A stretch of 64,000 nucleotides of DNA. It comes from a virus. Taxonomy: Duplodnaviria; Heunggongvirae; Uroviricota; Caudoviricetes. Below are positions 4,269-31,666 of the stretch, piece by piece; position 1 is the stretch's first letter; every line of letters begins with the position of its first letter. The DNA lies in the IMG/VR virus record IMGVR_UViG_3300013126_000009, one strand, 5' to 3'. Both the position numbers and the translations under genes were made by a program. The notes beneath the pieces were generated by a model, which saw nothing but the letters and a program-made list of their open reading frames with translations, did not search any database and had not been told where the DNA came from.

Positions 4269-4986
4269 TACATGGACAGCTAAAACAGCTTACGATTGGT
4301 GCTTGGAAGATAATATTAGAATCCTAAACATCGATGATTGGTTTGATTCATCTGATGATGAATTAACAAACATATATGATTATCATGTTAGGCCATATAC
4401 ACGTAAAGAGTTTGATGAGCGAATTAAACGTTGTAAGGTTAAACGAAATTCTAGGGCTAGAAAAATGGAAGAATTTCTGGAACTTAGAATGTATGGCTTC
4501 GTTATATACCAACTAAGCGGCATCCAAAAGGGTATTCAATTTCAACATGCTGTTACAGAATATGAACGGCATGTACCAGAAGATTTAAGACCACAATATG
4601 AACGTTGGGCTGATAAATGGAAAACCAGCATAGTATTGAATGGTGGAACAACAAATGATTGTTATATTGATTCTGGTACGATGCAGAAATATTATAATGA
4701 GTTATTGGATAATGGTATCTTTGTTCAAGAATTTAATGAACCTGATTTGAACGATTCAATGACAGCGTTTTGTTTCATAACGGACGAAAGGGTATTTGAT
4801 AGAAATACATATGAGGATTTTCAGCCAACACCATTCACATGGAAAGAAAACCATAAACCAAACGAGGCAACTTATATGGAATGGGAGAAGATGGAAAGAG
4901 AAAATTATGAAAAATGGATTGAAAAAGTTGGTGGACAACAAAATGCGTTTTTAAGGTCATTTTTAAAAGATAAAAAACTTGCATAG
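4249..4986 (+). CDS. hypothetical protein
   Basis: 245-aa ORF. Confidence 0.45.
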   Translation: MIHASGSTWTAKTAYDWCLEDNIRILNIDDWFDSSDDELTNIYDYHVRPYTRKEFDERIKRCKVKRNSRARKMEEFLELRMYGFVIYQLSGIQKGIQFQHAVTEYERHVPEDLRPQYERWADKWKTSIVLNGGTTNDCYIDSGTMQKYYNELLDNGIFVQEFNEPDLNDSMTAFCFITDERVFDRNTYEDFQPTPFTWKENHKPNEATYMEWEKMERENYEKWIEKVGGQQNAFLRSFLKDKKLA

Positions 4987-5014
4987 TTAAAAGATAATTT
5001 ATATATTTGTATTG
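4981..5014 (+). promoter_or_regulatory. Bacteroidetes-type promoter (-33 TTGCA / -7 TATATTTG)
   Basis: TTGCATAGTTAAAAGATAATTTATATATTTGTA. The same architecture recurs at 11259, 12319, 13740 and many other gene starts. Confidence 0.5.
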
Positions 5015-5026
5015 TAATAATTAAAA

Positions 5027-5677
5027 GGTGAGGTAGCTCAGTGGTAGAGCACGTAATTTGGTTAATCTGATTGAAAAGATTACATTCAGCAAATTTAATA
5101 TTAGCCTCTTAAGCACTTTACTAATTCTTAACATATTTATTATAAAAGGATAAATATGAAAAAGAAATGTACTGTATGTAAAGAAGAAAAAAAATTAACG
5201 GATTTTAATAAAAATGCTGGTAGAAAAGATGGTTTACAAAGTGAGTGTCGAGAATGTGGTAAAGTTCGCTCAAAAAAACATTATGAAAAAAACAAAACTA
5301 AAATAATAGAGCAGGTTAATTTGGCTAGAGACAAGAGAGTAAACGAACATCGGGAGAAATTTTATAACATCTTATGTGAGTCCTCTTGTATTGATTGTGG
5401 AAACACGAATCCACTGGTTTTAGAATTTGACCACGTAGATACTGATGGTAAAATACATGGGTTAAGTAAAATGGTTCATGATGGTTATTCTTGGGAAAAT
5501 ATATTAAAAGAAATTGATAAGTGTGAATGTCGATGTGCTAATTGTCATAGAATTAAAACAGCAACCGAACAAAATTGGTATAAATACAAGTTTTTAAAAT
5601 TACAAAATAATGATTGTACTAATCTTTAATAGTTATGTTAACTTCGTGGTCGCAGCGTTCGAATCCTGCCCTCACCG
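5027..5677 (+). tRNA. interrupted tRNA gene: 5' half (5027-~5056) and 3' half (~5644-5677) separated by ~590 bp that encodes an HNH endonuclease
   Basis: 5' part GGTGAGG-TA-GCTCAGTGGTAGAGC (acceptor strand plus canonical D-arm). 3' part ends GCAG(C)G-TTCGAAT-CCTGC-CCTCACC-G. CCTCACC is the exact complement of GGTGAGG. The T-stem needs one bulged C. Confidence 0.45.
5156..5629 (+). CDS. HNH homing endonuclease (inside the tRNA-interrupting insertion)
   Basis: Cys-rich; ...EFDHVDTDG...NCH motif, CxxC pairs. Confidence 0.7.
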   Translation: MKKKCTVCKEEKKLTDFNKNAGRKDGLQSECRECGKVRSKKHYEKNKTKIIEQVNLARDKRVNEHREKFYNILCESSCIDCGNTNPLVLEFDHVDTDGKIHGLSKMVHDGYSWENILKEIDKCECRCANCHRIKTATEQNWYKYKFLKLQNNDCTNL

Positions 5678-5696
5678 CATTTAAAGAAATATAATA

Positions 5697-5864
5697 TGTT
5701 AAAATCTATATTACAATTCACGGCTGATTACATCATCTCTACTTTAGAGATGATTAACAAAGAAGGTGCTGACAAAAACCAAAAAGAGTTTGAAATGGTT
5801 ATGTCCGTTGGTTTAATGTTAGACTTCTATAGTCAAACATTGTTTAATATTGAATTAGATTAAT
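5697..5864 (+). CDS. hypothetical small protein (55 aa; below ORF-track cutoff)
   Basis: ATG at 5697 to TAA at 5862-5864; similar to ORF 4065..4268. Confidence 0.3.
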
Positions 5865-7535: not shown

Positions 7536-7597
7536 AATTTTTTTTCAAAAAGACTTGCATTATTAGAAAACATGTTATATATTTGTACTGTAAATGA
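7536..7597 (+). repeat. 60-bp promoter-region repeat, copy 1 (copy 2 at 19810-19872)
   Basis: TTTTTCAAAAAGACTTGCATTATTAGAAAACATGTTATATATTTGT(A/T)CTGTAAATGA, near-identical in both copies. Confidence 0.8.
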
Positions 7598-7780
7598 ATA
7601 AAGATTCGTTACAGCAACAAATTTTTATTTATGAAAGGAGAGATTTGGGGTGTGCCAGTCACACTGACCAAATCAAAGAGTGATAACCTGAAGTTATCAG
7701 AATCTGTTTCATTTACATTTTTAATATAAAGAATAACTTTTTGTAAATTAACAACTATTTAATTAATAATAGAAAAAACT

Positions 7781-7864
7781 ATGAATACAGTAGTAAACAC
7801 TTTAGTCTTAAACCTATGTCTCTTGGTCGTGGAACCGAGATGGTCGGACTATTGTGTTAACTGA
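7781..7864 (+). CDS. leader micro-ORF (27 aa) upstream of tRNA cluster 1
   Basis: ATTTAATTAATAATAGAAAAAACTATG context conserved with micro-ORFs at 11322 and 19990; followed by a terminator. Confidence 0.3.
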   Translation: MNTVVNTLVLNLCLLVVEPRWSDYCVN

Positions 7865-8221: not shown

Positions 8222-8461
8222 ATGCGTGAAATTAAAAAAGTTGCATGGGATAAGTTCATTGAAACAATGGATTATGATTCTGACGTAAACAACTTCAAGT
8301 ATGACTTCAAATACATGACCAAAAACCATGGTAATGCCTTTATAGAATACTGTAAAAGTATGTGGGAAGCGAACGAAGGTATTCAAACAGAAGAAGAGTT
8401 TATGACGATGAACGCTAATATGCCAAAAGGCTTTTTTGATAAGGTAGTTAAGGGGAAGTGA
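8222..8461 (+). CDS. hypothetical protein located between tRNAs
   Basis: 79-aa ORF; its stop overlaps the start of the next tRNA. Confidence 0.35.
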   Translation: MREIKKVAWDKFIETMDYDSDVNNFKYDFKYMTKNHGNAFIEYCKSMWEANEGIQTEEEFMTMNANMPKGFFDKVVKGK

Positions 8462-8529
8462 TGGAAAGCTGGTGAAGCCTCTTTGACTTAAAATCAAAGG
8501 ATATACGGGTTCGACTCCCGTCTTCCCTA
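8452..8529 (+). tRNA. tRNA-Leu (UAA), atypical
   Basis: Acceptor GGGGAAG/CTTCCCT, A73; anticodon arm CTTTGA-CTTAAAA-TCAAAG; T-arm ACGGG-TTCGACT-CCCGT; D region homologous to the 8119 and 8541 tRNAs. Confidence 0.5.
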
Positions 8530-8540
8530 CTAAAAATTTG

Positions 8541-8617
8541 GGCGAGTGATGGAAAGCTGGTGAAGCCTCTTTACCTCAAAAGTAAAGGATATACGGGTTC
8601 GATTCCCGTCTTGCCCA
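8541..8617 (+). tRNA. tRNA-Leu (CAA), atypical
   Basis: Acceptor GGGCGAG/CTTGCCC, A73; anticodon arm CTTTAC-CTCAAAA-GTAAAG; T-arm ACGGG-TTCGATT-CCCGT. Confidence 0.5.
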
Positions 8618-8677
8618 CATTAATTAAATTTTAGTACATTTGTAGAATTACTAAACTATTTATTATAAAGTTCGCAA

Positions 8678-9373
8678 ATGACCAAAGTTTCAATAGTGAT
8701 ACCATCATATAATGAGGAGAATTACATAGATGGTATTTTAGATTCAATATACAATTCCGACATCAAATATCCATTTGAGGTTATTGTTGCAGACTCATCA
8801 ACAGATAATACTAGACAGATAATCAAAAACCATTATCCTGATGTTAAGATTGTTAAAGGTGGTAATGTTTCTCAAGCTAGGAACAATGGTGCGAAAAAGG
8901 CAAAGGGTGATTATATTATATTCATTGATGCGGATATAACCTTTGATGATAAAAAATTGATTAACAAGGCTGTTAAGAAGTTAAAAAAAGGTTATCATAT
9001 GGTTACAACGAAACTTAAATGTCGTAATAACACAATTGCTCATAATATTTATAAAGTGTGTAATTTCATACAACTATTTTCGGTTGTTGAAGGTATGCCA
9101 TTTTCCACAGGTTGTTTTATGGCTGTGGATAAAAAGAAGTTCTTTGAGTTGGGTGGGTTTGATGAGACTTTGCATTTTGCCGAGGATTATCATTTATCAC
9201 GAAAGATTAAAAGACGCAAGTTTTGGATTCTAATTAAAACGGGTGTATATACTGATGATAGGCGTTTCCAAAAGATGGGTTATTTTGGTTTAATGAAAGA
9301 ATTCATTCGCATAATGCGAAACAGATATAAGAATGATGACGAGTTTAGAAAAGATATTGGTTATTGGTCATGA
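8678..9373 (+). CDS. family-2 glycosyltransferase
   Basis: VSIVIPSYNEE N-terminus and DAD motif. Confidence 0.7.
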   Translation: MTKVSIVIPSYNEENYIDGILDSIYNSDIKYPFEVIVADSSTDNTRQIIKNHYPDVKIVKGGNVSQARNNGAKKAKGDYIIFIDADITFDDKKLINKAVKKLKKGYHMVTTKLKCRNNTIAHNIYKVCNFIQLFSVVEGMPFSTGCFMAVDKKKFFELGGFDETLHFAEDYHLSRKIKRRKFWILIKTGVYTDDRRFQKMGYFGLMKEFIRIMRNRYKNDDEFRKDIGYWS

Positions 9374-10113
9374 GTAAAAAAACCACTGAATGGAGAACAA
9401 TAGTTTTAAGTGACATTCACTTAGGTATTAGAGAATCAAAAGCGGAAGAAGTTGTAAAATTTTTAAATCAAAATAAAGCTGAGACATTAATATTGAATGG
9501 CGATATAATCGATGGTTGGGCTTTAAAACGGGGAAGTAAATGGAAGGATAAGCACACCAAGTGCATTAAGAAGTTTTTCAGGTTAGCACAAAAAGAAAGT
9601 GAGGTTTATTGGGTTAGAGGTAACCATGATGACTTTTTAGATGATTTTTTACCGTTTGAGTCAAAAATCAATGGTATAACGGTTTTAAAGGAAATGGATT
9701 ATATCGGTGCAAACGGGAACCGCTATTTGATTACACATGGTGACATCTTTGATGTTTTCATAACTAAAATGGGTTGGTTAGCCAAAATAGGTTCAATAGG
9801 TTATGATTTGGCACTATGGTTCAACTATTGGTACAATGAATGGAGAAAGTGGAGAGGTTTGCCGTATTTGTCTGTGAGTAAAATGATTAAAGATAGTGTT
9901 AAGCAAGCAGTTAAATTTGTAACGGATTTTGAAAATTATATAACGTCAGTCGCTAAGAAAAAAGGTTATGATGGTGTTATCTGTGGACATATACATCAAC
10001 CAGAGAAAAAGAACATTAATGATATTGAATATCTGAATAGTGGTGATTGGGTGGAAAACCTTTCTTGTTTGGTTGAAGATTTTGATGGTAATTGGAATGT
10101 TGTCTACTTCTGA
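9364..10113 (+). CDS. metallophosphoesterase (LpxH/Icc-like)
   Basis: LSDIHLG ... GNHDD ... GHIH motifs. Confidence 0.6.
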   Translation: MVMSKKTTEWRTIVLSDIHLGIRESKAEEVVKFLNQNKAETLILNGDIIDGWALKRGSKWKDKHTKCIKKFFRLAQKESEVYWVRGNHDDFLDDFLPFESKINGITVLKEMDYIGANGNRYLITHGDIFDVFITKMGWLAKIGSIGYDLALWFNYWYNEWRKWRGLPYLSVSKMIKDSVKQAVKFVTDFENYITSVAKKKGYDGVICGHIHQPEKKNINDIEYLNSGDWVENLSCLVEDFDGNWNVVYF

Positions 10114-10127
10114 CCATATTTATTGTT

Positions 10128-11237
10128 ATGAGGCAAGATATTAGAAAATCTTTACGTGAACAACTTAACGAAACCATTAAAAAACAAAATGGTAAGTATG
10201 TTGTATATCCAAAAAAGGGTGGTAAACGATTAGGTACTCACGACACTAAAGAGAAAGCACTTAAACAGCTGGCCGCGATTGAAATCAATAAAGCTAAACA
10301 CTTAGAAGAAATATTGAATGAGGTTGACCTATCCACATTCAAAATGAACGACACCCTTAATTCTGAAATATGGGATGGTGGTAAAATTAAAGAAGACATA
10401 CGTAAAGTATTATTAAAAATCGCAAACGATTATTGGGATTCATTGGAACTTGGTTTCACATATGATGATGTAACAATGACTGGTAGTTTGGCGAATTATA
10501 ATTGGTCAAAGTATTCAGATATTGACCTACATATAGTATTTGATGTGAACCAACTTGAAGGTGACCCTGAATTGATTAAAGATTTATTGGATACCAAAAC
10601 CAGAAAATGGAATTCTGACCATGACATAACGGTTAAAGGTTTTGATGTCGAACTTTATCTACAGGATAAAGACGAACCACATCATTCAACAGGTGTCTAC
10701 TCAATTACTGATAATGCTTGGGTTAAAGAACCAATAAAAGACATAGTTGAATTGGATAGACCAACAATCGAGAAAAAATACGATACAATAATCAAACGTA
10801 TTGAAGACATCGAAAAGGATTTTAAAAAAGGTGATGACTTAGACGGTGTAATTGATGATATTACCAAACTGAAAGAACGAATCAGAAAAATGCGAAAATC
10901 TGGTTTAGAAACTGGTGGTGAGTTTTCACCAACAAACATTGTGTTTAAACTTTTAAGACGAAATGAATTTATGGGTAAATTGAATGATATACAAACTCAA
11001 GCATACGATAAATCAGTCACCATAACTGAAAACGATGAAAAGAAACGAATATCTGTTGGTTATCTAAAAGGTTTAAAAAAGAACACAACCAATAGAAGTG
11101 GTGAAAAGGTTTTAAGTGGTTGGATTAATAAAGCTGGTAAGGATGAGTTCATATTTCTAACGCAAAGACAATATCAGTTATTACAGGACATCAAATTAGG
11201 TGGTCCAAAACCATCTTTCTACGGGACAAAAAACTAA
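10128..11237 (+). CDS. nucleotidyltransferase-fold (Pol-beta-like) domain protein
   Basis: TGSLANYNWSKYSDIDLHIVFD matches hG[GS]x9-13Dh[DE]h; start chosen at the first ATG after the upstream stop. Confidence 0.45.
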   Translation: MRQDIRKSLREQLNETIKKQNGKYVVYPKKGGKRLGTHDTKEKALKQLAAIEINKAKHLEEILNEVDLSTFKMNDTLNSEIWDGGKIKEDIRKVLLKIANDYWDSLELGFTYDDVTMTGSLANYNWSKYSDIDLHIVFDVNQLEGDPELIKDLLDTKTRKWNSDHDITVKGFDVELYLQDKDEPHHSTGVYSITDNAWVKEPIKDIVELDRPTIEKKYDTIIKRIEDIEKDFKKGDDLDGVIDDITKLKERIRKMRKSGLETGGEFSPTNIVFKLLRRNEFMGKLNDIQTQAYDKSVTITENDEKKRISVGYLKGLKKNTTNRSGEKVLSGWINKAGKDEFIFLTQRQYQLLQDIKLGGPKPSFYGTKN

Positions 11238-11480: not shown

Positions 11481-11553
11481 GTGGTGGTTACCAAGTTGGT
11501 CAAGGTGTCGCTCTGAAAAAGCGATAATGTTGGTTCGATTCCAACCCATCACA
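11481..11553 (+). tRNA. tRNA-Phe (GAA)
   Basis: Acceptor GTGGTGG/CCATCAC; anticodon arm TCGCT-CTGAAAA-AGCGA; T-arm GTTGG-TTCGATT-CCAAC. Confidence 0.65.
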
Positions 11554-11559
11554 CAAAAC

Positions 11560-11632
11560 GGTCCGTTCGACAAGTGGTTTAAGTCACCGCTCTTTCACAG
11601 CGGAGTCATGGGTTCAAATCCCATACGGACTA
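11560..11632 (+). tRNA. tRNA-Glu (UUC)
   Basis: Acceptor GGTCCGT/ACGGACT; anticodon arm CCGCT-CTTTCAC-AGCGG; T-arm ATGGG-TTCAAAT-CCCAT. Confidence 0.65.
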
Positions 11633-11686
11633 CTGAAAATATAGAGTTTTAAAGCCTTTTGACAATCTGGAAAGACGGATATTAAC

Positions 11687-11759
11687 GGACGCGAGGTGTT
11701 GTTGGTAACATACGGCCCTGTCACGGCTGAGATTGCGGGTTCAACCCCCGTGGCGTCCG
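11687..11759 (+). tRNA. tRNA-Asp (GUC)
   Basis: Acceptor GGACGCG/GGCGTCC (one mismatch); anticodon arm CGGCC-CTGTCAC-GGCTG; T-arm GCGGG-TTCAACC-CCCGT. Confidence 0.55.
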
Positions 11760-11784
11760 CCTAGACATATTTTTGGCACTTATT

Positions 11785-11857
11785 GTGGTGTTAGTTAAGC
11801 TGGCTATAATACTGCCCTTGCAAGGCGGAGTCATCGGTTCGAGGCCGATACGCTACA
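11785..11857 (+). tRNA. tRNA-Ala (UGC)
   Basis: Acceptor GTGGTGT/ACGCTAC including a G3:U70 pair (Ala identity element); anticodon arm CTGCC-CTTGCAA-GGCGG; T-arm ATCGG-TTCGAGG-CCGAT. Confidence 0.6.
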
Positions 11858-11876
11858 CTTTAAAATATTTATTATT

Positions 11877-12317
11877 GTGGCGAACAATAATAAAAAATAT
11901 CATTATATATACAAAACAACCTGTCAGGTAACTGGTAAATATTATATTGGTATACATTCAACCAGTGACCTTAACGATGGGTATATTGGTTCAGGTGTTT
12001 TGTTGAAACATTCGGTGAAGAAATATGGTGTTGAAAATCATGTCAATGAAATATTAGCTTTTGCTGATAATCGAAAAATATTATCTGAAATCGAAAAAAC
12101 TATTGTAACTGGTGATATATTAAAAGATTCCAAATGTTTAAACCTCAAAGAAGGTGGTGATGGTGGTTACATGTCAAGCAAAGAATCAAGAACATTAGCT
12201 AAATCAAAGAAACGAAAAAATCGATATAGAATTAAGAACCATAAGTCTAAAAACAAAAGTAAATCTAACAAGATTAAGAAAAAAACATCTAGGAAAAATA
12301 AACGTAAAAGAAAATAG
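11877..12317 (+). CDS. GIY-YIG homing-endonuclease-like protein (Seg/I-TevI-like) with basic C-tail
   Basis: YIYKTTCQVTGKYYIGIHST...DGYIGSG motif; lies immediately 3' of the tRNA cluster. Confidence 0.6.
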   Translation: MANNNKKYHYIYKTTCQVTGKYYIGIHSTSDLNDGYIGSGVLLKHSVKKYGVENHVNEILAFADNRKILSEIEKTIVTGDILKDSKCLNLKEGGDGGYMSSKESRTLAKSKKRKNRYRIKNHKSKNKSKSNKIKKKTSRKNKRKRK

Positions 12318-13738: not shown

Positions 13739-13759
13739 ATTTGCACAATTAAAATATAA

Positions 13760-15245
13760 TTTGTATATTTGTATTGTTCTTTGAAATTAAAACATTAAAG
13801 GTTCATTTCAGCAAATTCGTATTAACATCAAATTTTTTCTTTGAAGCAGTTAGAAACGTGAACCTGAAACTTACATAGAAAGTGGGTGGGATGAAAGCGA
13901 CAATAACAACATTAATTCAATAAATGTAAATAAATTTTATATTTTCTTTAAACTTTTTAATTTTTCTACATATTTATATATGATGTTGAAAGCTTTTAAA
14001 TATAGACTTAATCCGACTGAAGAACAAAAAGTTCTTCTGAATAAGCATATTGGTGCTTCTAGGTTTATATATAATTTAGCGTTGGAAACCAAACAAATAG
14101 CTTATGCTGGCAATAAACATAATCTTTCTTGTTTTGAACTGCATTCACAACTAAAAGAATTGAAAGAAGAATTGTCTTGGTTAAAGGAAATTAATTCACA
14201 ATCATTACAGCAAAGTATAACTAATTTAGATAAAGCATATACCGCTTTTTTTAAAGGTCAAAATTCATTTCCTAAGTATAAAAAGAAATCTAATGGTGGT
14301 AGTTTTAACATACCACAAAGAGTAAAAGTAGAAAATAATAAATTAATTATACCTAAATTCACAAAGAAAAATGGGTTAGATATTATATTACATAGACCAC
14401 TTAAAGGTGAAATAAGACAAGCAACAATATCTAAAACACCCACAGGTAAGTATTTTGTTTCCATTCTTTGTGAAACTGGTGAACAATGTAAACCTAAATC
14501 TAAGATAAAAGAAGAAACTACTATTGGTATAGACTTAGGAATTAAAGATTTCGTAATAACATCAGATGGTGAAGTATTTGATAACCCTAAGCACTTACGT
14601 AAAGCACAATCTAAATTAAAATACATACAGAGTAAGTATAGTAAAAATAAAGGAAAAAGAACAAAACAAAAATTAGCAAAGTTACATGAAAAAGTAACAA
14701 ATAAAAGAAAAGATTATTTGCATAAAATATCTTCTAAACTGGTTCGTGAGAACCAAACAATCAGTTTAGAAAATCTTGCTGTAAGTAATATGATTAAAAA
14801 TCATAATTTAGCACAAGCAATATCAGATGTAAGTTGGTCAACTTTTGTTAATATGTTAGAATATAAGTCTGAATGGTATGGAACAAATATACTTAAGATA
14901 GGTAGATTTGAACCATCATCAAAGACATGTTCTAACTGTGGTTATATTAATAAAGAACTAACGTTAAAAGATAGAGAATGGACTTGTGTTAACTGTAATA
15001 CTGAACATGATAGGGATATAAATGCGGCAATTAATATTAAAAATTTTAGTTTAAGAAATATTTTGTCAGGAACTGACAGAAAAAATCATGACGAACTGCC
15101 CACGTTAGTGGGAGTGCTGACTCATGAAGCCCAACCCATCGCCTCTGGCGTGGGTGGGTAGTTCACCGACCTCTCGAAGACCGATTGTTATTGTGGTGAT
15201 TGCGCATTGAATCACAAGAAAGACCGTAATGGCTCCCCTTCTTTT
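13760..15245 (+). mobile_element. IS605-family (IS1341-like) element carrying tnpB only; boundaries approximate
   Basis: tnpB plus a GC-rich 3' segment GCCCACGTTAGTGGGAGTG...GGCGTGGGTGGGTAG...AATGGCTCCCCTTC (15100-15245) consistent with an RE/omega-RNA scaffold. Confidence 0.5.
13980..15161 (+). CDS. tnpB: IS200/IS605-family transposase accessory protein TnpB (OrfB)
   Basis: OrfB N-terminal helix-turn-helix region; C-terminal zinc finger CSNCGY...CVNCN; typical size; no tnpA adjacent. Confidence 0.8.
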   Translation: MMLKAFKYRLNPTEEQKVLLNKHIGASRFIYNLALETKQIAYAGNKHNLSCFELHSQLKELKEELSWLKEINSQSLQQSITNLDKAYTAFFKGQNSFPKYKKKSNGGSFNIPQRVKVENNKLIIPKFTKKNGLDIILHRPLKGEIRQATISKTPTGKYFVSILCETGEQCKPKSKIKEETTIGIDLGIKDFVITSDGEVFDNPKHLRKAQSKLKYIQSKYSKNKGKRTKQKLAKLHEKVTNKRKDYLHKISSKLVRENQTISLENLAVSNMIKNHNLAQAISDVSWSTFVNMLEYKSEWYGTNILKIGRFEPSSKTCSNCGYINKELTLKDREWTCVNCNTEHDRDINAAINIKNFSLRNILSGTDRKNHDELPTLVGVLTHEAQPIASGVGG

Positions 15246-15661: not shown

Positions 15662-16192
15662 ATGAAAAAAAACGATGACGATTTCTTTGGTGATATGTTC
15701 GGTGACGGATTTGATGATGATTTTATAAGAGGTTTTGGTGGTTTCGGTTCATTCCTTAAAGGGTTTAGGGAACACCACTTCAACGACAAAGAAGATTTGG
15801 GTGAACCAGATTCAGTAAGGGAGTTTAAACAAGATGGTCACACTTTTATTGAAAAAATATGGAATACACCAACAGGTAAAGTTAAAATCATTGAGTCAAC
15901 CAACATTAACATTGAGAATGATGATTTTGATATTGAAAGTATAACAGATTATGATTCATTGGGTATTAATATGAATGATATTGAAGACTTCTTTTCATTT
16001 GTTAGCGGGATGGGTTCGGCTAATAGGAAACCTTTTAAAAATCGAGAAATAACCAAAGAAGAAAAACTTGACCTATTGACTACCAAGTTGCAGTATTGTG
16101 TTGATACCGAAAACTATGAAAGAGCTGCTAGACTTAGAGATATGATAGCTGAACTTAAAGAAGAAAAAAATTCAGAAAAAAGTGAAAAATAA
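15662..16192 (+). CDS. acidic protein with C-terminal UVR (UvrB/UvrC-like) motif
   Basis: ...ENYERAARLRDMIAELKE resembles the UVR-domain consensus; start taken at the ATG after the TTTGTGTATATTTGTA box. Confidence 0.4.
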   Translation: MKKNDDDFFGDMFGDGFDDDFIRGFGGFGSFLKGFREHHFNDKEDLGEPDSVREFKQDGHTFIEKIWNTPTGKVKIIESTNINIENDDFDIESITDYDSLGINMNDIEDFFSFVSGMGSANRKPFKNREITKEEKLDLLTTKLQYCVDTENYERAARLRDMIAELKEEKNSEKSEK

Positions 16193-16199
16193 TTTGGTG

Positions 16200-16688
16200 A
16201 TATGAAAAATAATCACTATATTTGTATCATCGTTCTTTGACAATATTATAAAGGTAGGCCGATAGCAGTTTAATGGCGAGGCAGCATCGTCCACATTTCA
16301 GGTTGCCACCATGCAACTGGTGCTGAGTGTGTAGGCCACCTATTTAGAATTATGGTTGTTTGGTACAAGTTAAGTTGAAATTGCTTTTATGAAAACTAAA
16401 AATTTCACCGAGGCCATCAACCGTAACATATTTTGACTCATCCAATTGGTTTTATAATATTAAAATTCATCTGTTTCAGCAGACAGTACTTTCAGTTATG
16501 AAGTTCCGAAAAGAGATGGTCTGGAGCTGCCATCAAAGTATAGCCCGACACCAAAGGGCGTTGTCTGTTTGAAAGTGTGGTTACCATTAACTCAAAATGG
16601 CATCTGGTACACCTAGTAATATGATTACTGTGAAAGGGATTCAGATTAACTGCATCCTCCTGTGGTGGGAGGCAGATGATAATTTCAT
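16200..16688 (+). ncRNA. candidate structured non-coding RNA (relatively GC-rich, ORF-free, hairpin-rich)
   Basis: Follows the promoter TATATTTGTATC at 16218. Local hairpins CCACC-ATGCAACT-GGTG, CTGT-TTCAGCAG-ACAG, CCTCC-TGTGGTG-GGAGG. No ORF of 60 aa or more on the plus strand. Confidence 0.35.
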
Positions 16689-16818
16689 AGTCAGGTGGCG
16701 GAATTGGTAGACGCTAAAAAAGATAATGGTGTAGATTACACAAGATTGAGGAATTAAGTTTCCAAAGGTATCGGGAAAATATAACTACACTGTACAGGTT
16801 CGAATCCTGTCCTGACTA
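16689..16818 (+). ncRNA. tRNA-like element A (130 nt; tRNA acceptor/D/T framework with long internal insertion)
   Basis: AGTCAGG-TG-GCGGAATTGGTAGACGC ... ACAGG-TTCGAAT-CCTGT-CCTGACT-A, perfect 7-bp acceptor pairing, about 78 nt between D-arm and T-arm. Confidence 0.5.
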
Positions 16819-16951
16819 CAATTCAATTGACGTTAAAACCATATACAATGGGAGTCACCGATGTGTCTAAGTTAGAGGTACACTAACACAAATCACATTG
16901 ACAACAGTTATCGGAGAGGAAATGGAAACCCTCATTGAATTTTTTAAACGG

Positions 16952-17075
16952 TCAGTCGGTGTATTGGCGAAACACAGATTGGTAACAAGTGTCGGTAATC
17001 AAGACGGGTGAGTAACGCGTAATAAGCCCTGAGAGAAAAACACACCTCATCTTATAAAGGTTCGAATCCTTTACT
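16952..17075 (+). ncRNA. tRNA-like element C (~124 nt) with long internal insertion; coordinates approximate (+/-2)
   Basis: GGTCAGT-CG-GTGT-ATTGGCGAA-ACAC ... AAAGG-TTCGAAT-CCTTT-ACTGACC-A; acceptor complement perfect. Confidence 0.45.
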
Positions 17076-17280
17076 GACCACAAGCCGTTTTTTAGTCCTC
17101 GTCCTATGAGACTATTGTTTAACGAGATGAAACAAATGTTGTATAAAGGGGTTTAGGTAAGTTTTCCAGAAAACTGTGGTCCTTTTCCTTACCGAAGGAG
17201 TTTTCAGACCTAAACTCAAAACTCAAACGACAGTAAAGAAGTAGGGACAAACGGGAGCGGCTTACTCCCGTCCCGAATAT

Positions 17281-17383
17281 AGTCAGGTGGCGGAATTGGT
17301 AGACGCATAATACCCTACATTGTGGGTAAAAGAATAAGGTCATTAGATGATACTTCATATAGGTTCGAATCCTGTCCTGACTA
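17281..17383 (+). ncRNA. tRNA-like element B (103 nt); ends identical to element A, interior different
   Basis: First 26 nt identical to element A, last ~24 nt near-identical. Interior has an anticodon-like arm ATAAT-ACCCTAC-ATTGT (CCU) and a 35-nt extra arm. Confidence 0.5.
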
Positions 17384-17387
17384 CGAG

Positions 17388-17490
17388 CTTAAAACTAAAA
17401 CTGAATGGTTGTCAGTTTTCGGTTCCGCTTTGTTTTACGGGGGTTCGAATCCTTCAAGATTGGTTGGCATAGGTGGGTTCGACTCCCACC
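17388..17490 (+). ncRNA. two degenerate or truncated tRNA-like sequences (D-armless; acceptor+T-arm minihelix)
   Basis: GGGGG-TTCGAAT-CCTTC and GTGGG-TTCGACT-CCCAC T-arms with partially paired acceptor strands (GATTGGT/CCCAATC). Confidence 0.3.
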
Positions 17491-17536
17491 CCAATCTAAA
17501 TTTAATTTTAAAATTTAAAAACATAAAAAAGATAAT

Positions 17537-17923
17537 ATGACATTAACCGTAGTTTTTTTAGTTCTTATAACCCATTGGTTTGCTGATTTTGTGTTACAAA
17601 CTGATAAACAAGCTAAAGGTAAAAGTAATAATTGGCGTGACTTATTAGCGCATACCAGTACATATAGTTCGGTATGGTTACTTGTTAGTTGTATACTTTT
17701 TGGTTTAATGTCAGGTGGACACACAACTAATTGGTACGTATTGAATTCAATAATGTTCACCTTAATCACATTTATATCACATACAGTTACTGATTATTTT
17801 ACTAGCAGACTAAACTCAAGGTTGTGGGCAAAAGGTGACGTGCATAATTTTTTTGTTAGCGTTGGTTTTGACCAAGTATTACATTATGTACAATTGTTTT
17901 TAACCTTAATGCTACTGTTGTGA
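17537..17923 (+). CDS. hypothetical membrane protein
   Basis: 128 aa with about 4 hydrophobic segments. Confidence 0.4.
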   Translation: MTLTVVFLVLITHWFADFVLQTDKQAKGKSNNWRDLLAHTSTYSSVWLLVSCILFGLMSGGHTTNWYVLNSIMFTLITFISHTVTDYFTSRLNSRLWAKGDVHNFFVSVGFDQVLHYVQLFLTLMLLL

Positions 17924-17978
17924 AATCAAAAAAATTACTATATTTGTAAGGTGATTAAAGAAAAAATGTTCGATAGGA

Positions 17979-18026
17979 GTACCTGTCCTAGCGGTTCGTA
18001 ACCGCCCTATTGAATTATAAAAACCA
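17979..18026 (+). ncRNA. minihelix-like tRNA fragment (acceptor stem + T-arm only)
   Basis: CGATAGG ... GCGG-TTCGTAA-CCGC-CCTATTG-A. Confidence 0.3.
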
Positions 18027-18116
18027 AATTAGGAAAGTTACTTGTGGAAAGGACGGACAGGAGGGTGGCCAATACGTAAGGCCTTTGGGGTTCGAATCCC
18101 ACGGTTTGGTTTTTAA
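18023..18116 (+). ncRNA. tRNA-like element D (~93 nt)
   Basis: Acceptor CCAAATT/GGTTTGG (2 G-U pairs), T-arm TGGGG-TTCGAAT-CCCAC, internal hairpins; anticodon not assignable. Confidence 0.3.
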
Positions 18117-18123
18117 TAATATT

Positions 18124-18211
18124 GGTTGTGCGGACGCAATGGGCCGTAAACGGTGCAAATCCGTTTAATCAGAGGTGAGAAGCCTCAAGTGGTTCGTAGC
18201 CACCACAACCA
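18124..18211 (+). tRNA. type-II-like tRNA (anticodon loop TGCAAAT, CAA?, Leu-like), possibly a pseudogene
   Basis: Acceptor GGTTGTG/CACAACC perfect; anticodon arm AAACGG-TGCAAAT-CCGTTT; long variable-arm hairpin GAGG-TGAGAAG-CCTC; unusual T-loop TTCGTAG (no A58). Confidence 0.35.
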
Positions 18212-19809: not shown

Positions 19810-19872
19810 TTTTTTTTTTTCAAAAGACTTGCATTATTAGAAAACATGTTATATATTTGTTCTGTAAATGAT
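19810..19872 (+). repeat. 60-bp promoter-region repeat, copy 2
   Basis: Near-identical to 7536-7597. Confidence 0.8.
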
Positions 19873-19989
19873 TTGAAGATTCACTTCAGCAAATTTTAAA
19901 CTTTATATTTGGATAAAAGAAACTGAATCTGTTTTATTTACAAAAAAATAAACTTTTTAAAACTTAACCATATTTAATTAAAAGAAGTA

Positions 19990-20088
19990 ATGAAAACTTA
20001 TACGACATATCAAGGAAAACAGTATCCGCAAGGCACGAAGCCGAGCGAACTGGGCATGTCGTATCTAAACTCATTGTTCTTCTTATGA
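19990..20088 (+). CDS. leader micro-ORF (32 aa) upstream of tRNA cluster 3
   Basis: ATTTAATTAAAAGAAGTAATGAAAAC context; followed by a terminator. Confidence 0.3.
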   Translation: MKTYTTYQGKQYPQGTKPSELGMSYLNSLFFL

Positions 20089-20117
20089 TAGGATAAAAGT
20101 ATAATAACGATAAGGCA

Positions 20118-20797: not shown

Positions 20798-20872
20798 TCC
20801 CTCATAGGTTCAATTGGTTTAGACTACTTAACTTTTAATTAAGGGGTGCTGGTTCGAGTCCAGCTGGGGGAA
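20798..20872 (+). tRNA. tRNA-Lys (UUU)
   Basis: Acceptor TCCCTCA/TGGGGGA; anticodon arm CTTAA-CTTTTAA-TTAAG; T-arm GCTGG-TTCGAGT-CCAGC. Confidence 0.65.
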
Positions 20873-20914
20873 CAAAAATTTGTTTATTAATAAAATAATT
20901 TATATATTTGCTCT

Positions 20915-25572: not shown

Positions 25573-25704
25573 ATGTTGCCGATGTTTATTACTGGCATAT
25601 TTTGTTTGATAACTTTAGTTTCAGCACTACCATTCTTAATTTCTTTATTATTATTTGCGTTATCGTTCTATTATTATTCACAAAAAAGAAAAAAAATATA
25701 TTAA
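25573..25704 (+). CDS. small hydrophobic peptide (43 aa)
   Basis: MLPMFITGIFCLITLVSALPFLISLLLFALSFYYY; overlaps neighbouring genes. Confidence 0.2.
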   Translation: MLPMFITGIFCLITLVSALPFLISLLLFALSFYYYSQKRKKIY

Positions 25705-25705
25705 A

Positions 25706-26113
25706 ATGACATTAAAAAATAAAATTAATGGTGATATAAAAAATGCCATGAAAAACAAAGAATCTCAAAAGTTGGGGGTACTTCGAGTATTGAAAGGTGA
25801 GATTGAACGTAATGAACAAACATCTAAGGGTAAGGTTGAATTATCAGATAATGATATTGTTGCATTGGTTAAGAAATCGATTCAAGGCGTTAAAGAGACC
25901 ACTAATGATGAGTTTGAAATTACGGTTTTGGAAGGATATCTACCCAAACAATTATCAAATTTTGAGTTGATTGAAATAGTAAAGGAATTTGTGTTATCTG
26001 AAGAAAGTGCTGGTAACGTAAACATTGGTGCAATAATGAATTATTTTAAAGTGAATTATGCTGGTCAATATGACGGTAAGGAATTAAGTTTAATTATTAA
26101 AAGTTTAATGTGA
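25706..26113 (+). CDS. GatB/YqeY domain protein
   Basis: MTLKNKINGDIKNAMKNKESQKLGVLRVLKGEIERNEQ matches the YqeY N-terminal pattern. Confidence 0.55.
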   Translation: MTLKNKINGDIKNAMKNKESQKLGVLRVLKGEIERNEQTSKGKVELSDNDIVALVKKSIQGVKETTNDEFEITVLEGYLPKQLSNFELIEIVKEFVLSEESAGNVNIGAIMNYFKVNYAGQYDGKELSLIIKSLM

Positions 26114-27495: not shown

Positions 27496-28437
27496 ATGCA
27501 AATAAAAACTGTAGTCAATCCAGAAGAATATACCTGTGGCGTTTTAGTTGGTAGATTTCAAGTTGCGAAGCTTCATGACGGTCATAGAGCCTTAATTGAT
27601 AAGGTTGTTAGTCATCATAAAAAAGTGGTTATCTTTCTTGGTGTACCTAGAAAATCTGGTTCAAAAAGCAATCCATTACCGTTTGCTGCAAGGAAGTTGA
27701 TGATTCAAGAAGAATATCCTAATATTGTAATACTGCCATTACAGGATATGCGAAGTGATTCCGATTGGAGTAAGCAACTTGACAATCTAGTTACACAACC
27801 ATACGGTAATCAAAAGTTCCTTCTTTATGGTTCAAGAGACTCATTTATAAGTCATTATTCTGGTAGATTTGACACCACAGAATTAATTACTGATATATTT
27901 TACTCAGGTACTCAAGCAAGGAAATTAATTTCTGAAGAGATTGGGGCTTCTGAGGATTGGAGGGCTGGCGTGATTCATGCCACTTATGATAGATATCCAG
28001 TGACTTACCCTACAGTTGACATTATACCATATCAAATTAACCCCGAAGGCGGTGGTAAAATCTTATTGGCGCAAAAACCAAACGAAACCAAATGGCGAAT
28101 GGTGGGTGGTTTTGTTGACCGAACAGATAGTAATTGGGAAGCTGCGGCTAAAAGGGAATTGTTTGAAGAGGTTGGTCAAATTGAAGTTGGTAACATGGAA
28201 TATGTCACCAGTGGTCAAGTTGACGATTGGAGATATAATGGGTGTGAGGATGGAATTATGACCACGGTATTCAAATGCAAATATGTATTCGGCACACCAA
28301 AACCAAATGACGATATTCATGCTGTTAAATGGTTCACAACCGATGAATTAACTTATGATTATCGTAGAGATATAATTGTACCAGAACATATTAAATTTTT
28401 GGATGCGTTTTTCACATCAACTAGATTTCACAATTAA
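27496..28437 (+). CDS. nadM: bifunctional NMN adenylyltransferase / Nudix hydrolase (NadM-Nudix)
   Basis: Cytidylyltransferase motif GVLVGRFQVAKLHDGH plus Nudix box GGFVDR...REL(F)EEVG. Confidence 0.8.
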   Translation: MQIKTVVNPEEYTCGVLVGRFQVAKLHDGHRALIDKVVSHHKKVVIFLGVPRKSGSKSNPLPFAARKLMIQEEYPNIVILPLQDMRSDSDWSKQLDNLVTQPYGNQKFLLYGSRDSFISHYSGRFDTTELITDIFYSGTQARKLISEEIGASEDWRAGVIHATYDRYPVTYPTVDIIPYQINPEGGGKILLAQKPNETKWRMVGGFVDRTDSNWEAAAKRELFEEVGQIEVGNMEYVTSGQVDDWRYNGCEDGIMTTVFKCKYVFGTPKPNDDIHAVKWFTTDELTYDYRRDIIVPEHIKFLDAFFTSTRFHN

Positions 28438-28450
28438 AAAAAAATACATT

Positions 28451-30034
28451 ATGAGTTTAAAAAGAGAAATTAAAAGACAGCTTAAACAAGCGTTAAAATC
28501 AGGTAATTATGGTGACATGTTGGAACTTAATGACATGTTACAGAAATATTTAGATAAACCACATAATTTAGTATTATTGGGTGATGCTTATAAATATTCA
28601 CACCATAAGTTTTATCCAGATGGTATGACAAAAATGGGTTCATATCTGGAATCAAGGGGTGGTAAATTCAATGAAACGGTATTCTACGGACTCCAATGGT
28701 TTATGAAACAATATCTTGAGGGTGTTGCGATAACAAGAGAAGATGTCGATGAGGCTTATGATTATTTGGGTACTGTACATGGTGTGTTTGGTAGAGAAGA
28801 TGTTTTTGATAGAACCAAATTTGATTATATTGTTGAACATCATGGTGGTAGATTACCAATTAAAATAAAGGCAGTTCCCGAAGGTTCAGTTGTTGGGGTT
28901 AAGAATGTGCTTTTATATATTGAGAATACTGACCCAAAATGTTCATGGTTAACAAATTTCTTGGAGACTTTGATTTTGCAGGTTTGGTATCCAATTACAG
29001 TCGCAACTTTATCAAGGGAAGTTAAAAAGATTGTTAATAATGCTTGGGATGAAACAACGGATTTTGATTCCGAAACCAAAGAATTCTTAATGGAATATGT
29101 ACTGAATGACTTTGGTTTTAGAGGTGTTTCAAGCGTACAGTCAGCAGAAATTGGTGGGTCCGCACACCTTGTTAACTTTAGGGGTTCAGATACTACGGCA
29201 GCATCTAGATTAATATGCGAGTATTATGATACGGATACTGTTTATGGGCAATCAGTTCCAGCCACAGAGCATTCTATTATGACGTTGCTTGGTAAAGAAG
29301 GTGAAGTCGATATGATGCGAAGAGTGTTAGAAAAATACCCAACTGGTATTGTTGCTTGTGTCTCTGATACCTTTGGTATTATGAATGCTGTTAAGAATCT
29401 ATGGGGTAAAGAGCTAAAAGCTGAAATTTTGAGTAGACCAAATGAACCAGCTAATCAATTGGTTATAAGACCTGATAGTGGTCATGTAATTAACACATTG
29501 ATTATGGTGTTCGATTCGTTATTTGAAACTTTCGGATATACAACAAACAGTAAAGGATTTAAGGTGTTACCACCACAAGTGCGAATAATTCAAGGGGATG
29601 GTGTTAATATTGATAGCATTGCTGGTGTATATGAAATGATGAAAGAAAGGAAAATTTCAGCGGAAAATATTGTATTTGGGATGGGTGGTAAACTGCTGCA
29701 AGCTGGTATAGACCGAGATACTCAAAATTTCGCCACGAAATGTTGTTTTAGTATTATTGATGGTAAGGAAATTGATGTTGCAAAAAGTCCTATCGAGATT
29801 GACGAAAACTTCAACGAAGTACAATCGTTTAAGAAATCTAAGTCTGGACAATTGAAGTTGGTTAAAGACCAAGACGGTTCTTACTATACCCTAACATCAA
29901 ATGATGAGGGTTTTGAAGAAGCCACCGATGAATTGGTGCCAGTTTTCGAAAATGGTAAAATACTTAAAAATTATACTTTTGAACAAGTGCGTGAAAACGC
30001 TAAATTAGTTGTTAGTGAGTTTGAACTGTCATGA
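28451..30034 (+). CDS. nadV: nicotinamide phosphoribosyltransferase (NAMPT/NadV)
   Basis: Homologous to the NAMPT/PBEF family across its full length (LLGDAYKYSHHKFYP, GDG...); start set at ATG 28451 after the nadM stop. Confidence 0.85.
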   Translation: MSLKREIKRQLKQALKSGNYGDMLELNDMLQKYLDKPHNLVLLGDAYKYSHHKFYPDGMTKMGSYLESRGGKFNETVFYGLQWFMKQYLEGVAITREDVDEAYDYLGTVHGVFGREDVFDRTKFDYIVEHHGGRLPIKIKAVPEGSVVGVKNVLLYIENTDPKCSWLTNFLETLILQVWYPITVATLSREVKKIVNNAWDETTDFDSETKEFLMEYVLNDFGFRGVSSVQSAEIGGSAHLVNFRGSDTTAASRLICEYYDTDTVYGQSVPATEHSIMTLLGKEGEVDMMRRVLEKYPTGIVACVSDTFGIMNAVKNLWGKELKAEILSRPNEPANQLVIRPDSGHVINTLIMVFDSLFETFGYTTNSKGFKVLPPQVRIIQGDGVNIDSIAGVYEMMKERKISAENIVFGMGGKLLQAGIDRDTQNFATKCCFSIIDGKEIDVAKSPIEIDENFNEVQSFKKSKSGQLKLVKDQDGSYYTLTSNDEGFEEATDELVPVFENGKILKNYTFEQVRENAKLVVSEFELS

Positions 30035-30201
30035 GTGATAATCGGTTAGTCCAACAATACAAAGACCTAATTAAAGAAGTTAAGGCTGAACATTTAATTG
30101 AACATATGTCGGATAATGACATAGCAGAAGCTCTTCGTTCAATGTCTAAAAAGATTAACGATGAACTTGAATCAAAGGTAACAAAAAACCATAATGATTA
30201 A
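30031..30201 (+). CDS. hypothetical small protein (56 aa, below track cutoff)
   Basis: ATGA-coupled to the nadV stop; its end overlaps the next start. Confidence 0.25.
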   Translation: MSDNRLVQQYKDLIKEVKAEHLIEHMSDNDIAEALRSMSKKINDELESKVTKNHND

Positions 30202-30523
30202 TGTAGTTAACAAGTACAAACATCAACCGACTGATAACGATGTATACATTGGTAGAGGTTCACCTTTAGGTAATCCATTCACAGGTTCTAAAAAACTTGA
30301 AGCGACAAAGGCTGAATTTCAATGCGCTTCTCGTGAAGAAGCTATCGAAAGTTACGAAAATTATTTAAGGCTTGCAATTTCAAATAAAAATAACTATATT
30401 TGTCAAGAATTGAATAAGATTCACAAAATGGCTAAACTTGGTGATGTTAATTTGGTTTGTTTTTGCAAGCCAAAAGATTGTCATGGTGATGTTATTAAAA
30501 AGGTAATAGAAGAGAAATTATGA
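30194..30523 (+). CDS. hypothetical protein
   Basis: 109-aa ORF. Confidence 0.4.
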   Translation: MINVVNKYKHQPTDNDVYIGRGSPLGNPFTGSKKLEATKAEFQCASREEAIESYENYLRLAISNKNNYICQELNKIHKMAKLGDVNLVCFCKPKDCHGDVIKKVIEEKL

Positions 30524-31660: not shown

Positions 31661-31666
31661 AATAAT

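Follow-up and report, generated by a model that had tools for sequence, protein, structure and literature searches.

A gene for a transfer RNA (tRNA), tRNA-Lys(CUU), in a tailed phage lies in three pieces, split by two separate insertions in its anticodon stem. It occupies positions 5027–5677 of the Caudoviricetes virus stretch IMGVR_UViG_3300013126_000009; this whole stretch of 64,000 nucleotides (nt) is referred to here as the window. The two insertions are unrelated to each other: one is a 49-nt element with a small hairpin followed by CAGCA, and the other a cassette of 529 base pairs (bp) carrying an HNH endonuclease gene. By its sequence relatives, the small element represents a conserved, apparently undescribed family of tRNA-interrupting sequences in many large phages. 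Taken as a whole, the best explanation, to which we assign a probability of about 0.6, is that the small element is removed from the RNA and that the HNH cassette is a DNA-level insertion that has probably inactivated this copy. All evidence at the locus is comparative and drawn from sequence, and relatives are named by contig labels such as L208 and L212.

A tRNA-Lys(CUU) gene in three pieces

The locus comprises the following features, including the open reading frame (ORF) of the HNH endonuclease, 157 amino acids (aa) long.

4979–5009, + strand: promoter, presumably of the Bacteroidota type, TTG-N20-TATATTTG, about 17 nt 5' of the tRNA (pattern scan)
5027–5053, + strand: exon 1, with the acceptor 5' strand, D arm, position 26 and anticodon-stem positions 27–28 (…GAGC A CG)
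5054–5102, + strand: insertion 1, the 49-nt element (M-type), between tRNA positions 28 and 29
5103–5114, + strand: exon 2, 12 nt, with stem positions 29–31, loop CTCTTAA and stem positions 39–40 (AGC CTCTTAA GC)
5108–5110, + strand: anticodon CTT within exon 2
5115–5643, + strand: insertion 2, the 529-bp HNH endonuclease cassette, at anticodon-stem positions 40/41
5156–5629, + strand: HNH endonuclease ORF, 157 aa, motifs N-terminal CxxC…CxxC, EFDH and CANCH
5644–5677, + strand: exon 3, with anticodon-stem positions 41–43 (TCG), variable loop TGGTC, T arm, acceptor 3' strand and discriminator G

Joined in silico, 5027–5053, 5103–5114 and 5644–5677 form a 74-nt tRNA-Lys(CUU) under ARAGORN defaults; its 5-bp anticodon stem (CGAGC/GCTCG) pairs perfectly, and its anticodon loop reads CTCTTAA. 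The predicted joint after removal of the small element runs from GGTAGAGCACG into AGCCTCTTAAGC, and that after removal of the cassette from CTCTTAAGC into TCGTGGTCGCAG. Uninterrupted tRNAs of other phages carry the same junction sequence (GAGCACG/AGCCT..TAAGC/TCG, joints marked by slashes), and the first 29 nt of exon 1 match annotated tRNA-Lys and tRNA-Phe genes of cultured jumbo phages. CCA is not encoded at the 3' end of exon 3. A separate tRNA-Lys(UUU) gene stands at 20798–20873.

At normal thresholds, neither ARAGORN nor Rfam calls a tRNA at the interrupted locus. Lowered thresholds alone made ARAGORN propose a tRNA-Pro(UGG) with a 569-nt intron, in the wrong register, with a mispaired T stem and a 14-nt variable region. 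This call is an artefact, because the anticodon arm is a separate 12-nt piece at 5103–5114.

An earlier sequence-only reading of this DNA had described a tRNA 5' half and 3' half around an HNH gene, and every sequence feature that it listed is present. The acceptor strands GGTGAGG (5027–5033) and CCTCACC (5670–5676) are exactly complementary, the D arm GCTC-AGTGGTA-GAGC lies at 5036–5050, the T loop TTCGAAT at 5658–5664 and the discriminator G at 5677, and the 157-aa HNH endonuclease is encoded in between. The sequence ACGTAATTTGG does not form the anticodon arm; only its CG belongs to the tRNA, TAATTTGG... begins the 49-nt insertion, and the true arm is at 5103–5114. The prospect that the two halves are unrelated fragments falls away, as the joined exons give tRNA-Lys(CUU) and relatives have an HNH-less gene at the same place. 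The bulged C reported in the T stem is real: it is an extra unpaired C at positions 52/53 (GCAG-C-G TTCGAAT C-CTGC; 5652–5669). It is a lineage feature and not window-specific damage, because the orthologue L212 shares it. The T arm of L279 has a similar irregularity (ATTG-CG-G…).

Close relatives without the HNH gene

Among close relatives, one precise site either has the cassette or lacks it. L208, L212 and L229, recovered from metagenomes by a pattern search, have locus-flanking proteins 85–92% identical to those of the window. All three have a tRNA gene at the corresponding place, followed by a small ORF (MLK..ILQF) and without an HNH gene; in L208 and L212 the promoter before this tRNA matches that of the window. 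Segment 5115–5643 is absent from the three relatives, which are otherwise colinear, and once it is taken out the window aligns with L208 and L212 at 86% column identity. The 5' breakpoint of the cassette is also seen in an alignment made without the deletion. The idea of a tRNA gene disrupted by a mobile HNH element, also raised in the sequence-only reading, therefore holds for the 529-bp cassette, which is polymorphic among relatives, and misses that there are two insertions.

The 49-nt element stays behind when the cassette is missing. L208 and L212 have the same tRNA gene without the cassette, and it still carries the 49-nt element. Deleting the element from these HNH-less orthologues too yields canonical tRNAs, for L208 a tRNA-Lys(CUU) with an ARAGORN score of 124.5. 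Three orthologues, the window gene included, have acceptor stems that vary through compensatory pairs: GGTGAGG/CCTCACC, as in the window, GACGAGG/CCTCGTC and GAGGAGG/CCTCCTC.

Other routes to relatives gave little. Megablast of a 2.8-kilobase (kb) region against cultured phages produced no match, and the window is without a close cultured relative. When exon 1 and the element were used together in a distant search, only ordinary tRNAs matched, over the first 29 nt; an exact search with the tRNA 5' half matched only an unrelated tRNA-Phe; and the upstream protein found no relatives among viral contigs.

A family of hairpin-CAGCA elements inside tRNA genes

The small element belongs to a family with a recognizable core. 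Its hairpin arms at 5063–5068 and 5077–5082 (TAATCT/AGATTA) enclose a loop at 5069–5076, and the conserved CAGCA follows at 5087–5091. Across the family the core reads (T)TAATCT-loop-AGATTA(A)-NNN-T-N-CAGCA, a 6–7-bp hairpin flanked on either side by variable A/U-rich linkers. A loose 14-base motif scan returned almost nothing except chance matches in coding DNA, and the pattern was then tightened. With the hairpin included, the pattern detected tRNA-embedded modules in IMG/VR contigs of 23–425 kb and in metagenome contigs; in a scan of a collection of bacterial genome assemblies, 16 of 16 matches were coding-sequence chance or mis-binned phage contigs. As the family was gathered with a pattern fixing the hairpin core, its true diversity is under-sampled.

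A covariance model built from 20 homologues scores 5060–5095 at 47.8 bits (expectation value (E) 2e-11), a partly circular figure given that the window sequence is among the 20; the other 19 members score 38–54 bits. This is the sole full copy in the window. The model also found a copy with a changed inner pair (CAATCT/AGATTG in L176) and copies with a 45-nt loop insertion (L133, L216 and L010). The window has three occurrences of a sub-motif, AAGANTNNNTNCAGCA, where 0.02 would be expected. A candidate second module inside the HNH ORF (AGAATTAAAACAGCAA, ~5553) was rejected: it encodes a conserved HRIKTA motif, and its DNA is not conserved in homologues.

Deleting the element restores tRNAs of many kinds. 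We removed every possible segment around each tRNA-embedded module and scored the product with ARAGORN. About 20 distinct genes became default-threshold tRNAs, with scores of 103–124; the deleted elements measure 43–54 nt, and the genes cover at least eight isotypes. Every recovered tRNA-embedded copy is oriented as its tRNA gene. The insertion points are distributed as follows.

26/27: Ser UGA
28/29: Lys CUU, Asn GUU, Arg CCU, Asp GUC, Glu UUC
31/32: Tyr GUA
37/38: Tyr GUA, Ala UGC

The interrupted genes are under selection to keep tRNA structure, because their cloverleaf helices pair above shuffles and covary across the insertion. Across ten homologous interrupted genes, the paired share of cloverleaf cells is 98.8%, against 91.1±0.9 in shuffles (0/500). 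Both sides have changed in three acceptor pairs, three T-stem pairs and three anticodon-stem pairs that span the insertion. This selection is the main argument for the element's removal from the RNA. Within the element, the outer hairpin pair is UA in 16 copies, AU in two, CG in one and GC in one, and unpaired in none of the 20. The small element may best be seen as a short tRNA intervening sequence of a new kind, which proteins probably remove.

Some family members and neighboring loci are less regular. A subgroup with the 5' end AATGCAAAAAG (L181 ~60–190 and L214 ~5170–5300; also L062, L173 and L255) gives as its best in-silico product a tRNA with anticodon UUA, which would read the UAA stop, a 6-bp stem, the loop CTTTAGG and a score of 123. 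The alternative is a Cys/Ala reading with A33; the Cys/Ala anticodon lies 5' of the element and that of the UUA suppressor 3' of it. Some relatives would get 8-nt loops. In L276 (~200–960), the 5' part of a tRNA ends in …GAGCACG; after it stands a different insertion, of 55 nt and lacking the module, and then an Asn(GUU) anticodon arm. The HNH gene comes after this arm, and its 3' end extends into the T loop and the 3' acceptor (…TCCCTACCA). The 28/29 site may thus also be used by small insertions of a second kind. Orphan or mismatched halves occur at related loci, L002, L133 and L010 among them, and could be decay products, trans-acting pieces or assembly chimeras.

The HNH cassette as a mobile gene

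By its distribution, the cassette behaves as a free-standing homing-endonuclease gene, one that spreads between paralogous tRNA genes and is at times destructive. The cassette comprises a 41-nt leader with CTTAACATATTTATTATAAAAG…ATG, the ORF and a 14-nt tail. The ORF matches PHROG 2255, "HNH endonuclease" (E 8e-32); searches against Pfam, NCBIfam and PDB sequences gave nothing above threshold. It has counterparts in 309 phage records (tblastn) and 154 homologues in a large protein collection, the closest 85% identical. The EFDH…CANCH motifs are kept in these homologues, and Pfam PF01844 is recorded for one of them (P0031). The leader recurs before the closest homologues, in L002 (85% identity), L010 and L279, and two small ORFs at other places in the window have similar leaders.

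The site of the cassette varies. It stands immediately 3' of an AGC-loop-GCT anticodon arm in genes for Asn GUU (L002), Thr GGU (L279) and Arg CCU (L282), a homologous cassette replaces the T-stem 5' strand in L276 and L278, and in L003 the cassette lies between intact tRNA genes. Alignment with relatives shows no target-site duplication at the cassette junctions.

The cassette entered at the DNA level and probably disables this copy of tRNA-Lys(CUU), to judge from these comparisons; inactivation is the most likely outcome because no splicing signal is evident for it. We consider it unlikely that both insertions are removed from the RNA, leaving a functional tRNA-Lys(CUU) and an HNH gene that is intron-borne in something other than a group I intron. 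Such a double removal would fit the insertion of the cassette without loss or duplication of exon bases and the repeated placement of its homologues just 3' of the anticodon arm (L002, L279, L282), and trimming back to a helix followed by sealing needs no specific motif. It would also give a role to the one sub-terminal inverted repeat, in which the leader at 5128–5142 and the post-stop segment at 5627–5641 are 13/15 complementary, so as to loop out the HNH gene, the only ORF. The significance of this repeat is marginal. Its duplex energy beats 96% of shuffles, but the equivalent leader-tail pairing is not significant in L002, L278, L279, L276 or L003. The cassette ends also bear no hairpin-CAGCA module, a homologous cassette destroyed the T-stem 5' strand in L276 and L278, which shows that such cassettes can be destructive, and close relatives of the window manage without one.

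Permuted tRNA genes and promoter-proximal module copies

Certain relatives carry the interrupted gene with its 3' half first. The window gene itself is colinear and not permuted; the order with the 3' half upstream is found in L282, L002 and L279. L282 and L002 are both arranged as 3' arm-CAGCAA-exon 2/3-spacer-exon 1-linker-5' arm, and the DNA of L282 reads AAAGATTAA-TACAGCAA-linker, tRNA 29–73, a 14-nt spacer, tRNA 1–28, TATGAAAAA-TTAATCT. The permuted loci (L282 1939–2100; L002 213–900; L278–L281) have spacers of 3–14 nt and module arms at their outer ends. L278–L281 are permuted as in L282 with an HNH cassette inside, and so is L002, which puts the cassette in two of the three permuted entries (L282; L002; L278–L281). 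Un-permuted in silico, L282 becomes a tRNA-Lys(CUU) scoring 128.3, the top score of all, and L002 an Asn GUU tRNA scoring 120.3. L282 thus has the same precursor, its hairpin loop opened and the tRNA ends joined.

The same logic may explain 3' halves of the module that stand right after promoters. The window holds two of them.

7601–7616, + strand: 3' part of the module, AAGATTCGTTACAGCA, right after a promoter and without a tRNA half; AATCTGTTT lies ~85 nt downstream
19876–19891, + strand: second promoter-proximal 3' module part, 18.8 bits; AATCTGTTT lies 33 nt past CAGCAA

AATCTGTTT resembles the 5' arm of the module. The surrounding units, 7555–7800 and 19829–20100, have near-identical promoters, each followed by the 3' half of the module (AAGATT…CAGCAA) and a 33–75-nt segment; after the module half at 7601 this segment includes a GC-rich hairpin, GATTTGG…CCAAATC, at 7640–7680. 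Both units continue with AATCTGTTTyATTTAC, an HNH-like leader, a 27–33-aa ORF and a terminator. They look like permuted units holding something other than a tRNA. The 3' module half also follows sigma-70-type promoters in the unrelated phages L041, L044, L058 and L108; across these cases and the window, AATCTGTTT comes 33–85 nt further downstream. In L114 (4576–4770), three hairpin-CAGCA modules with 20-nt loops stand in tandem ~77 nt apart, with no tRNA parts between them.

These arrangements bear on a rather improbable alternative, in which the module works on DNA, for instance as a target of recombination or of an endonuclease, or as a promoter-proximal regulatory site; the interrupted, permuted and orphan tRNA pieces would then stem from DNA rearrangement there and be mostly non-functional. 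With its inverted repeat and 6–8-bp spacer, the module is like the core site of a recombinase; permuted orders and orphan halves adjoin module copies; the 3' module half follows promoters in the window and in unrelated phages; and HNH and GIY-YIG nuclease genes cluster beside the module. However, every tRNA-embedded copy is oriented as its gene, and the loop varies from 6 to 9 nt, reaching ~45 nt in L133 and L216, more variation than the spacer of a recombinase site would allow. Changes in the outer stem pairs are compensatory, and the tRNA stems spanning the element keep covarying. The element ends are not conserved, and there is no target-site duplication.

Still less probable is that the interrupted genes make unspliced tRNA-like RNAs whose enlarged anticodon arm displays the module for another function, in the manner of those Y-RNA-like RNAs of bacteria that include a tRNA-like domain. 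As such RNAs would have it, conservation extends over the acceptor, D and T arms, and the module is the most conserved part of the insertion. Yet removing the element yields 7-nt loops, U33 and a purine at position 37 for at least eight anticodons, all needless in a non-decoding RNA, and the insertion point moves around the anticodon arm.

Known intron and ribozyme classes

Identification of either insertion as a group I intron is not supported. Rfam 15, run on 4900–5800 (901 nt) at E<=10, gave no group I match and only one chance match, and a whole-window Rfam scan at the gathering threshold found tRNAs only. In group I introns the 5' exon ends in U and the intron in G, and the smallest natural examples are ~200 nt; here the last base is G5053 in exon 1, T5102 in the 49-nt element and T5643 in the cassette. 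The non-coding RNA at hand, 49 nt in the element and 41 nt and 14 nt on the two sides of the ORF, falls far short of what a P3–P9 core with its P7 G-binding site takes up. Alone, the 49-nt element folds into one small hairpin only (-4 to -8 kcal/mol; minimum free energy -6.1). A single group I intron with an HNH homing endonuclease ORF, which the sequence-only reading had thought possible, can be set aside: the layout, with intervening DNA in the anticodon arm, does resemble HNH-carrying phage group I introns, but there is no Rfam match at E<=10, a 12-nt anticodon exon separates two insertions, and the ORF-less form is 49 nt with no 5'-exon U, no terminal G and almost no predicted structure.

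Other known classes fare no better. At the inspected junctions, neither insertion has a bulge-helix-bulge motif, in which a 4-bp helix separates two 3-nt bulges with the splice sites: around 5053/5054 and 5102/5103 the bases that would form this helix, AGCA (5048–5051) and AATA (5097–5100), do not pair. No EndA-like protein is present among the ~35 window ORFs scanned. A search for a helix closing the small element, or for guide pairing between linkers and exons, found nothing consistent. Hammerhead (CUGAU…GAAA in the loop), pistol, hatchet and twister ribozymes were rejected; the loop is not conserved and there is no Rfam match. In the full-text literature readable without subscription, we found no mention of the module, of short phage tRNA anticodon-stem introns or of permuted phage tRNA genes.

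A candidate pathway for the putative removal of the small element

We infer that the small element is removed at the RNA level; the enzymes involved are a matter of speculation. In the scheme we propose, the tRNA body would fold first. The hairpin would act as the signal holding the two A/U-rich linkers together, a role suggested because related phages open it in circularly permuted tRNA genes. A nuclease would cut or trim the single-stranded linkers back to the folded tRNA body, and a phage RNA ligase would seal the exons into a normal tRNA. Among the T4 enzymes, the Rnl2 type seals nicks in duplex RNA and the Rnl1 type seals breaks in anticodon loops. An Rnl2-type ligase would here seal the stem nick (28/29), and an Rnl1-type ligase the loop break (31/32 or 37/38).

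The window's set of RNA repair and tRNA-related genes is unusually full.

436–1110: metallophosphatase
1133–1741: HAD_SAK_1 domain of RNA repair proteins
1771–2925: Rnl1-like RNA ligase
9364–11237: second metallophosphatase and nucleotidyltransferase
25655–26113: YqeY, part of the RNA repair and tRNA-related set
39058–40104: Rnl2-like RNA ligase
46893–47363: cREC_REC, a cyclic-phosphate-processing domain

The first metallophosphatase, HAD_SAK_1 and Rnl1-like genes all lie less than 4 kb upstream of the interrupted tRNA. The protein encoded at 11877–12317, the only one that co-occurs with the module, was considered as a splicing nuclease and was rejected as a GIY-YIG homing endonuclease. This Seg-like gene directly follows a tRNA cluster at 11481–11858, and homologues 43–51% identical to it lie within a few hundred bases of module-bearing tRNAs in L132, L147, L143 and L185.

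A broader proposal, which we advance tentatively and at somewhat less than even odds, is that large phages of Bacteroidota or related hosts have an unrecognized tRNA splicing system, with hairpin-CAGCA marking intervening sequences at many anticodon-arm positions and with phage-encoded Rnl1/Rnl2 ligases and end-healing domains plus a nuclease as its machinery. As part of it, the module opened at its loop would join the ends of permuted, and possibly split, tRNA genes.

Several points weigh against the reading we prefer, of RNA-level removal of the small element and a disabling DNA-level cassette. The argument for removal draws only on the conserved tRNA parts. Since the search pattern itself fixed the five inner pairs of the hairpin, these lend no covariation evidence. 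The junctions have no conserved nucleotides and the linkers vary in length, which leaves the precision of cutting unexplained, and the analysis identified no candidate splicing endonuclease. In the AATGCAAAAAG subgroup, the anticodon could lie on either side of the element. Promoter-adjacent 3' parts without a tRNA suggest that the module may have a more general or different role. As for the cassette, the exons that flank it are undamaged and the weak leader-tail pairing (13/15) could loop it out; removal from the RNA may occur.

Other features of the window

The AT-rich window has more than 40 promoters on the + strand in a pattern scan for TTG-N19/20-TAnnTTTG, a consensus that we take to be of the Bacteroidota type. 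A related phage would probably have a host among the Flavobacteriia or Bacteroidia. A 2-kb stretch without a long ORF (16190–18200) contains several over-long tRNA-like genes missed by ARAGORN: 16691–16818 (128 nt, acceptor AGTCAGG/CCTGACT), 16950–17080 (131 nt, Rfam tRNA 32 bits) and 17281–17383 (103 nt, Rfam tRNA 37 bits). Orphan T arms occur there at 17443, 17477 and 18090, and a GC-richer segment of ~440 nt, 16250–16690, follows a promoter. The hairpin-CAGCA module is absent from the tRNA-like genes of this stretch; other kinds of insertion may exist. Two tRNA-Leu genes (8452–8530 and 8540–8618) are called by ARAGORN at 69 nt, starting 10 nt later than the 78-nt Rfam matches.

Among protein-coding genes, a TnpB gene (IS605 OrfB / Cas12f-like) lies at 13980–15161 (Pfam E 1e-24; region 13741–15161), preceded by a promoter and the motif variant AAAGGTTCATTTCAGCAAATT at 13795–13817. 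A nicotinamide adenine dinucleotide (NAD+) salvage module spans 27496–32840, with a NUDIX gene (27496–28437), a nicotinamide phosphoribosyltransferase (28376–30034) and a ribose-phosphate pyrophosphokinase (31782–32840). A sigma-70 family factor is encoded at 35920–36792.

Implications

The bacterial and phage tRNA introns on record are self-splicing group I introns, the only exception found being the unexplained introns of Lak megaphages. The hairpin-CAGCA family adds a recognizable signature, many members, variable insertion sites and permuted versions, and points to a dedicated RNA cutting-and-joining pathway in phages. The signature is a concrete handle for finding the enzymes of that pathway. 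If true, the splicing-system proposal would mean that protein-dependent tRNA splicing and permuted tRNA genes are, for the first time, known from bacteria and phages. The RNA ligase and repair genes common in large phages may process the phage's own RNAs besides repairing host-inflicted damage. Standard tRNA finders miss the interrupted genes, so phage tRNA counts and codon-supplement analyses are biased. The HNH cassette shows homing nucleases invading interrupted tRNA genes, possibly an early stage of nuclease-intron association.

Comparison with known systems

The locus recalls group I introns with homing-endonuclease ORFs (tRNA-Leu/fMet/Ile/Arg; T4 td/nrdB/sunY; SPO1 I-HmuI) in its anticodon-region insertion and in the presence of both ORF-less and nuclease-associated versions in related genomes. 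Unlike them, it has no core, the small element measures 49 nt against at least ~200 nt and sits in the stem and not the loop, and the HNH ORF lies outside the small element with the anticodon exon between. In Patescibacteria, new tRNA insertion sites of group I introns are on record (PMC13011429).

Like the free-standing nucleases of T4 (SegB) and T5, the HNH gene has its own expression signals and comes and goes among close relatives in the tRNA region. HNH nicking endonucleases are known in the T5 tRNA region. The homing endonuclease SegB is known from the tRNA cluster of phage T4 (PMC13096335). Unlike these nuclease genes, the HNH gene stands inside a tRNA gene (stem 40/41), not between genes.

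The Rnl1- and Rnl2-type ligases and the end-healing domains near tRNAs resemble the heal-and-seal systems of T4 Pnkp/Rnl1 and yeast Trl1 (PMC3400036). The T4 enzymes repair host-inflicted damage; a role in removing encoded insertions is our suggestion.

In the permuted tRNAs of Cyanidioschyzon merolae, the helix at the intron site is formed by the transcript ends. The elements described here share shortness and several anticodon-arm positions with archaeal and algal bulge-helix-bulge introns (PMC4090602). Their permuted forms, with the intron helix opened and the tRNA ends joined by a spacer, parallel permuted and split tRNAs (Nanoarchaeum; Cyanidioschyzon merolae, Thermofilum pendens; PMC4090602). 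They differ in their context, phages of bacteria, and in lacking bulge-helix-bulge junction geometry.

The "enigmatic" tRNA introns of Lak megaphages are 79–114 nt long, all at 37/38, with a T-arm-like segment and no Rfam match (PMC6784885). No hairpin-CAGCA module, variable insertion position or permuted genes have been reported for them. Compared with the published sequences (PMC6784885 Supplementary Table 6), the element differs in position, length and sequence. Like the Lak introns, it is a short, non-group-I insertion without an Rfam match in the tRNA genes of large phages that, here probably, infect Bacteroidota.

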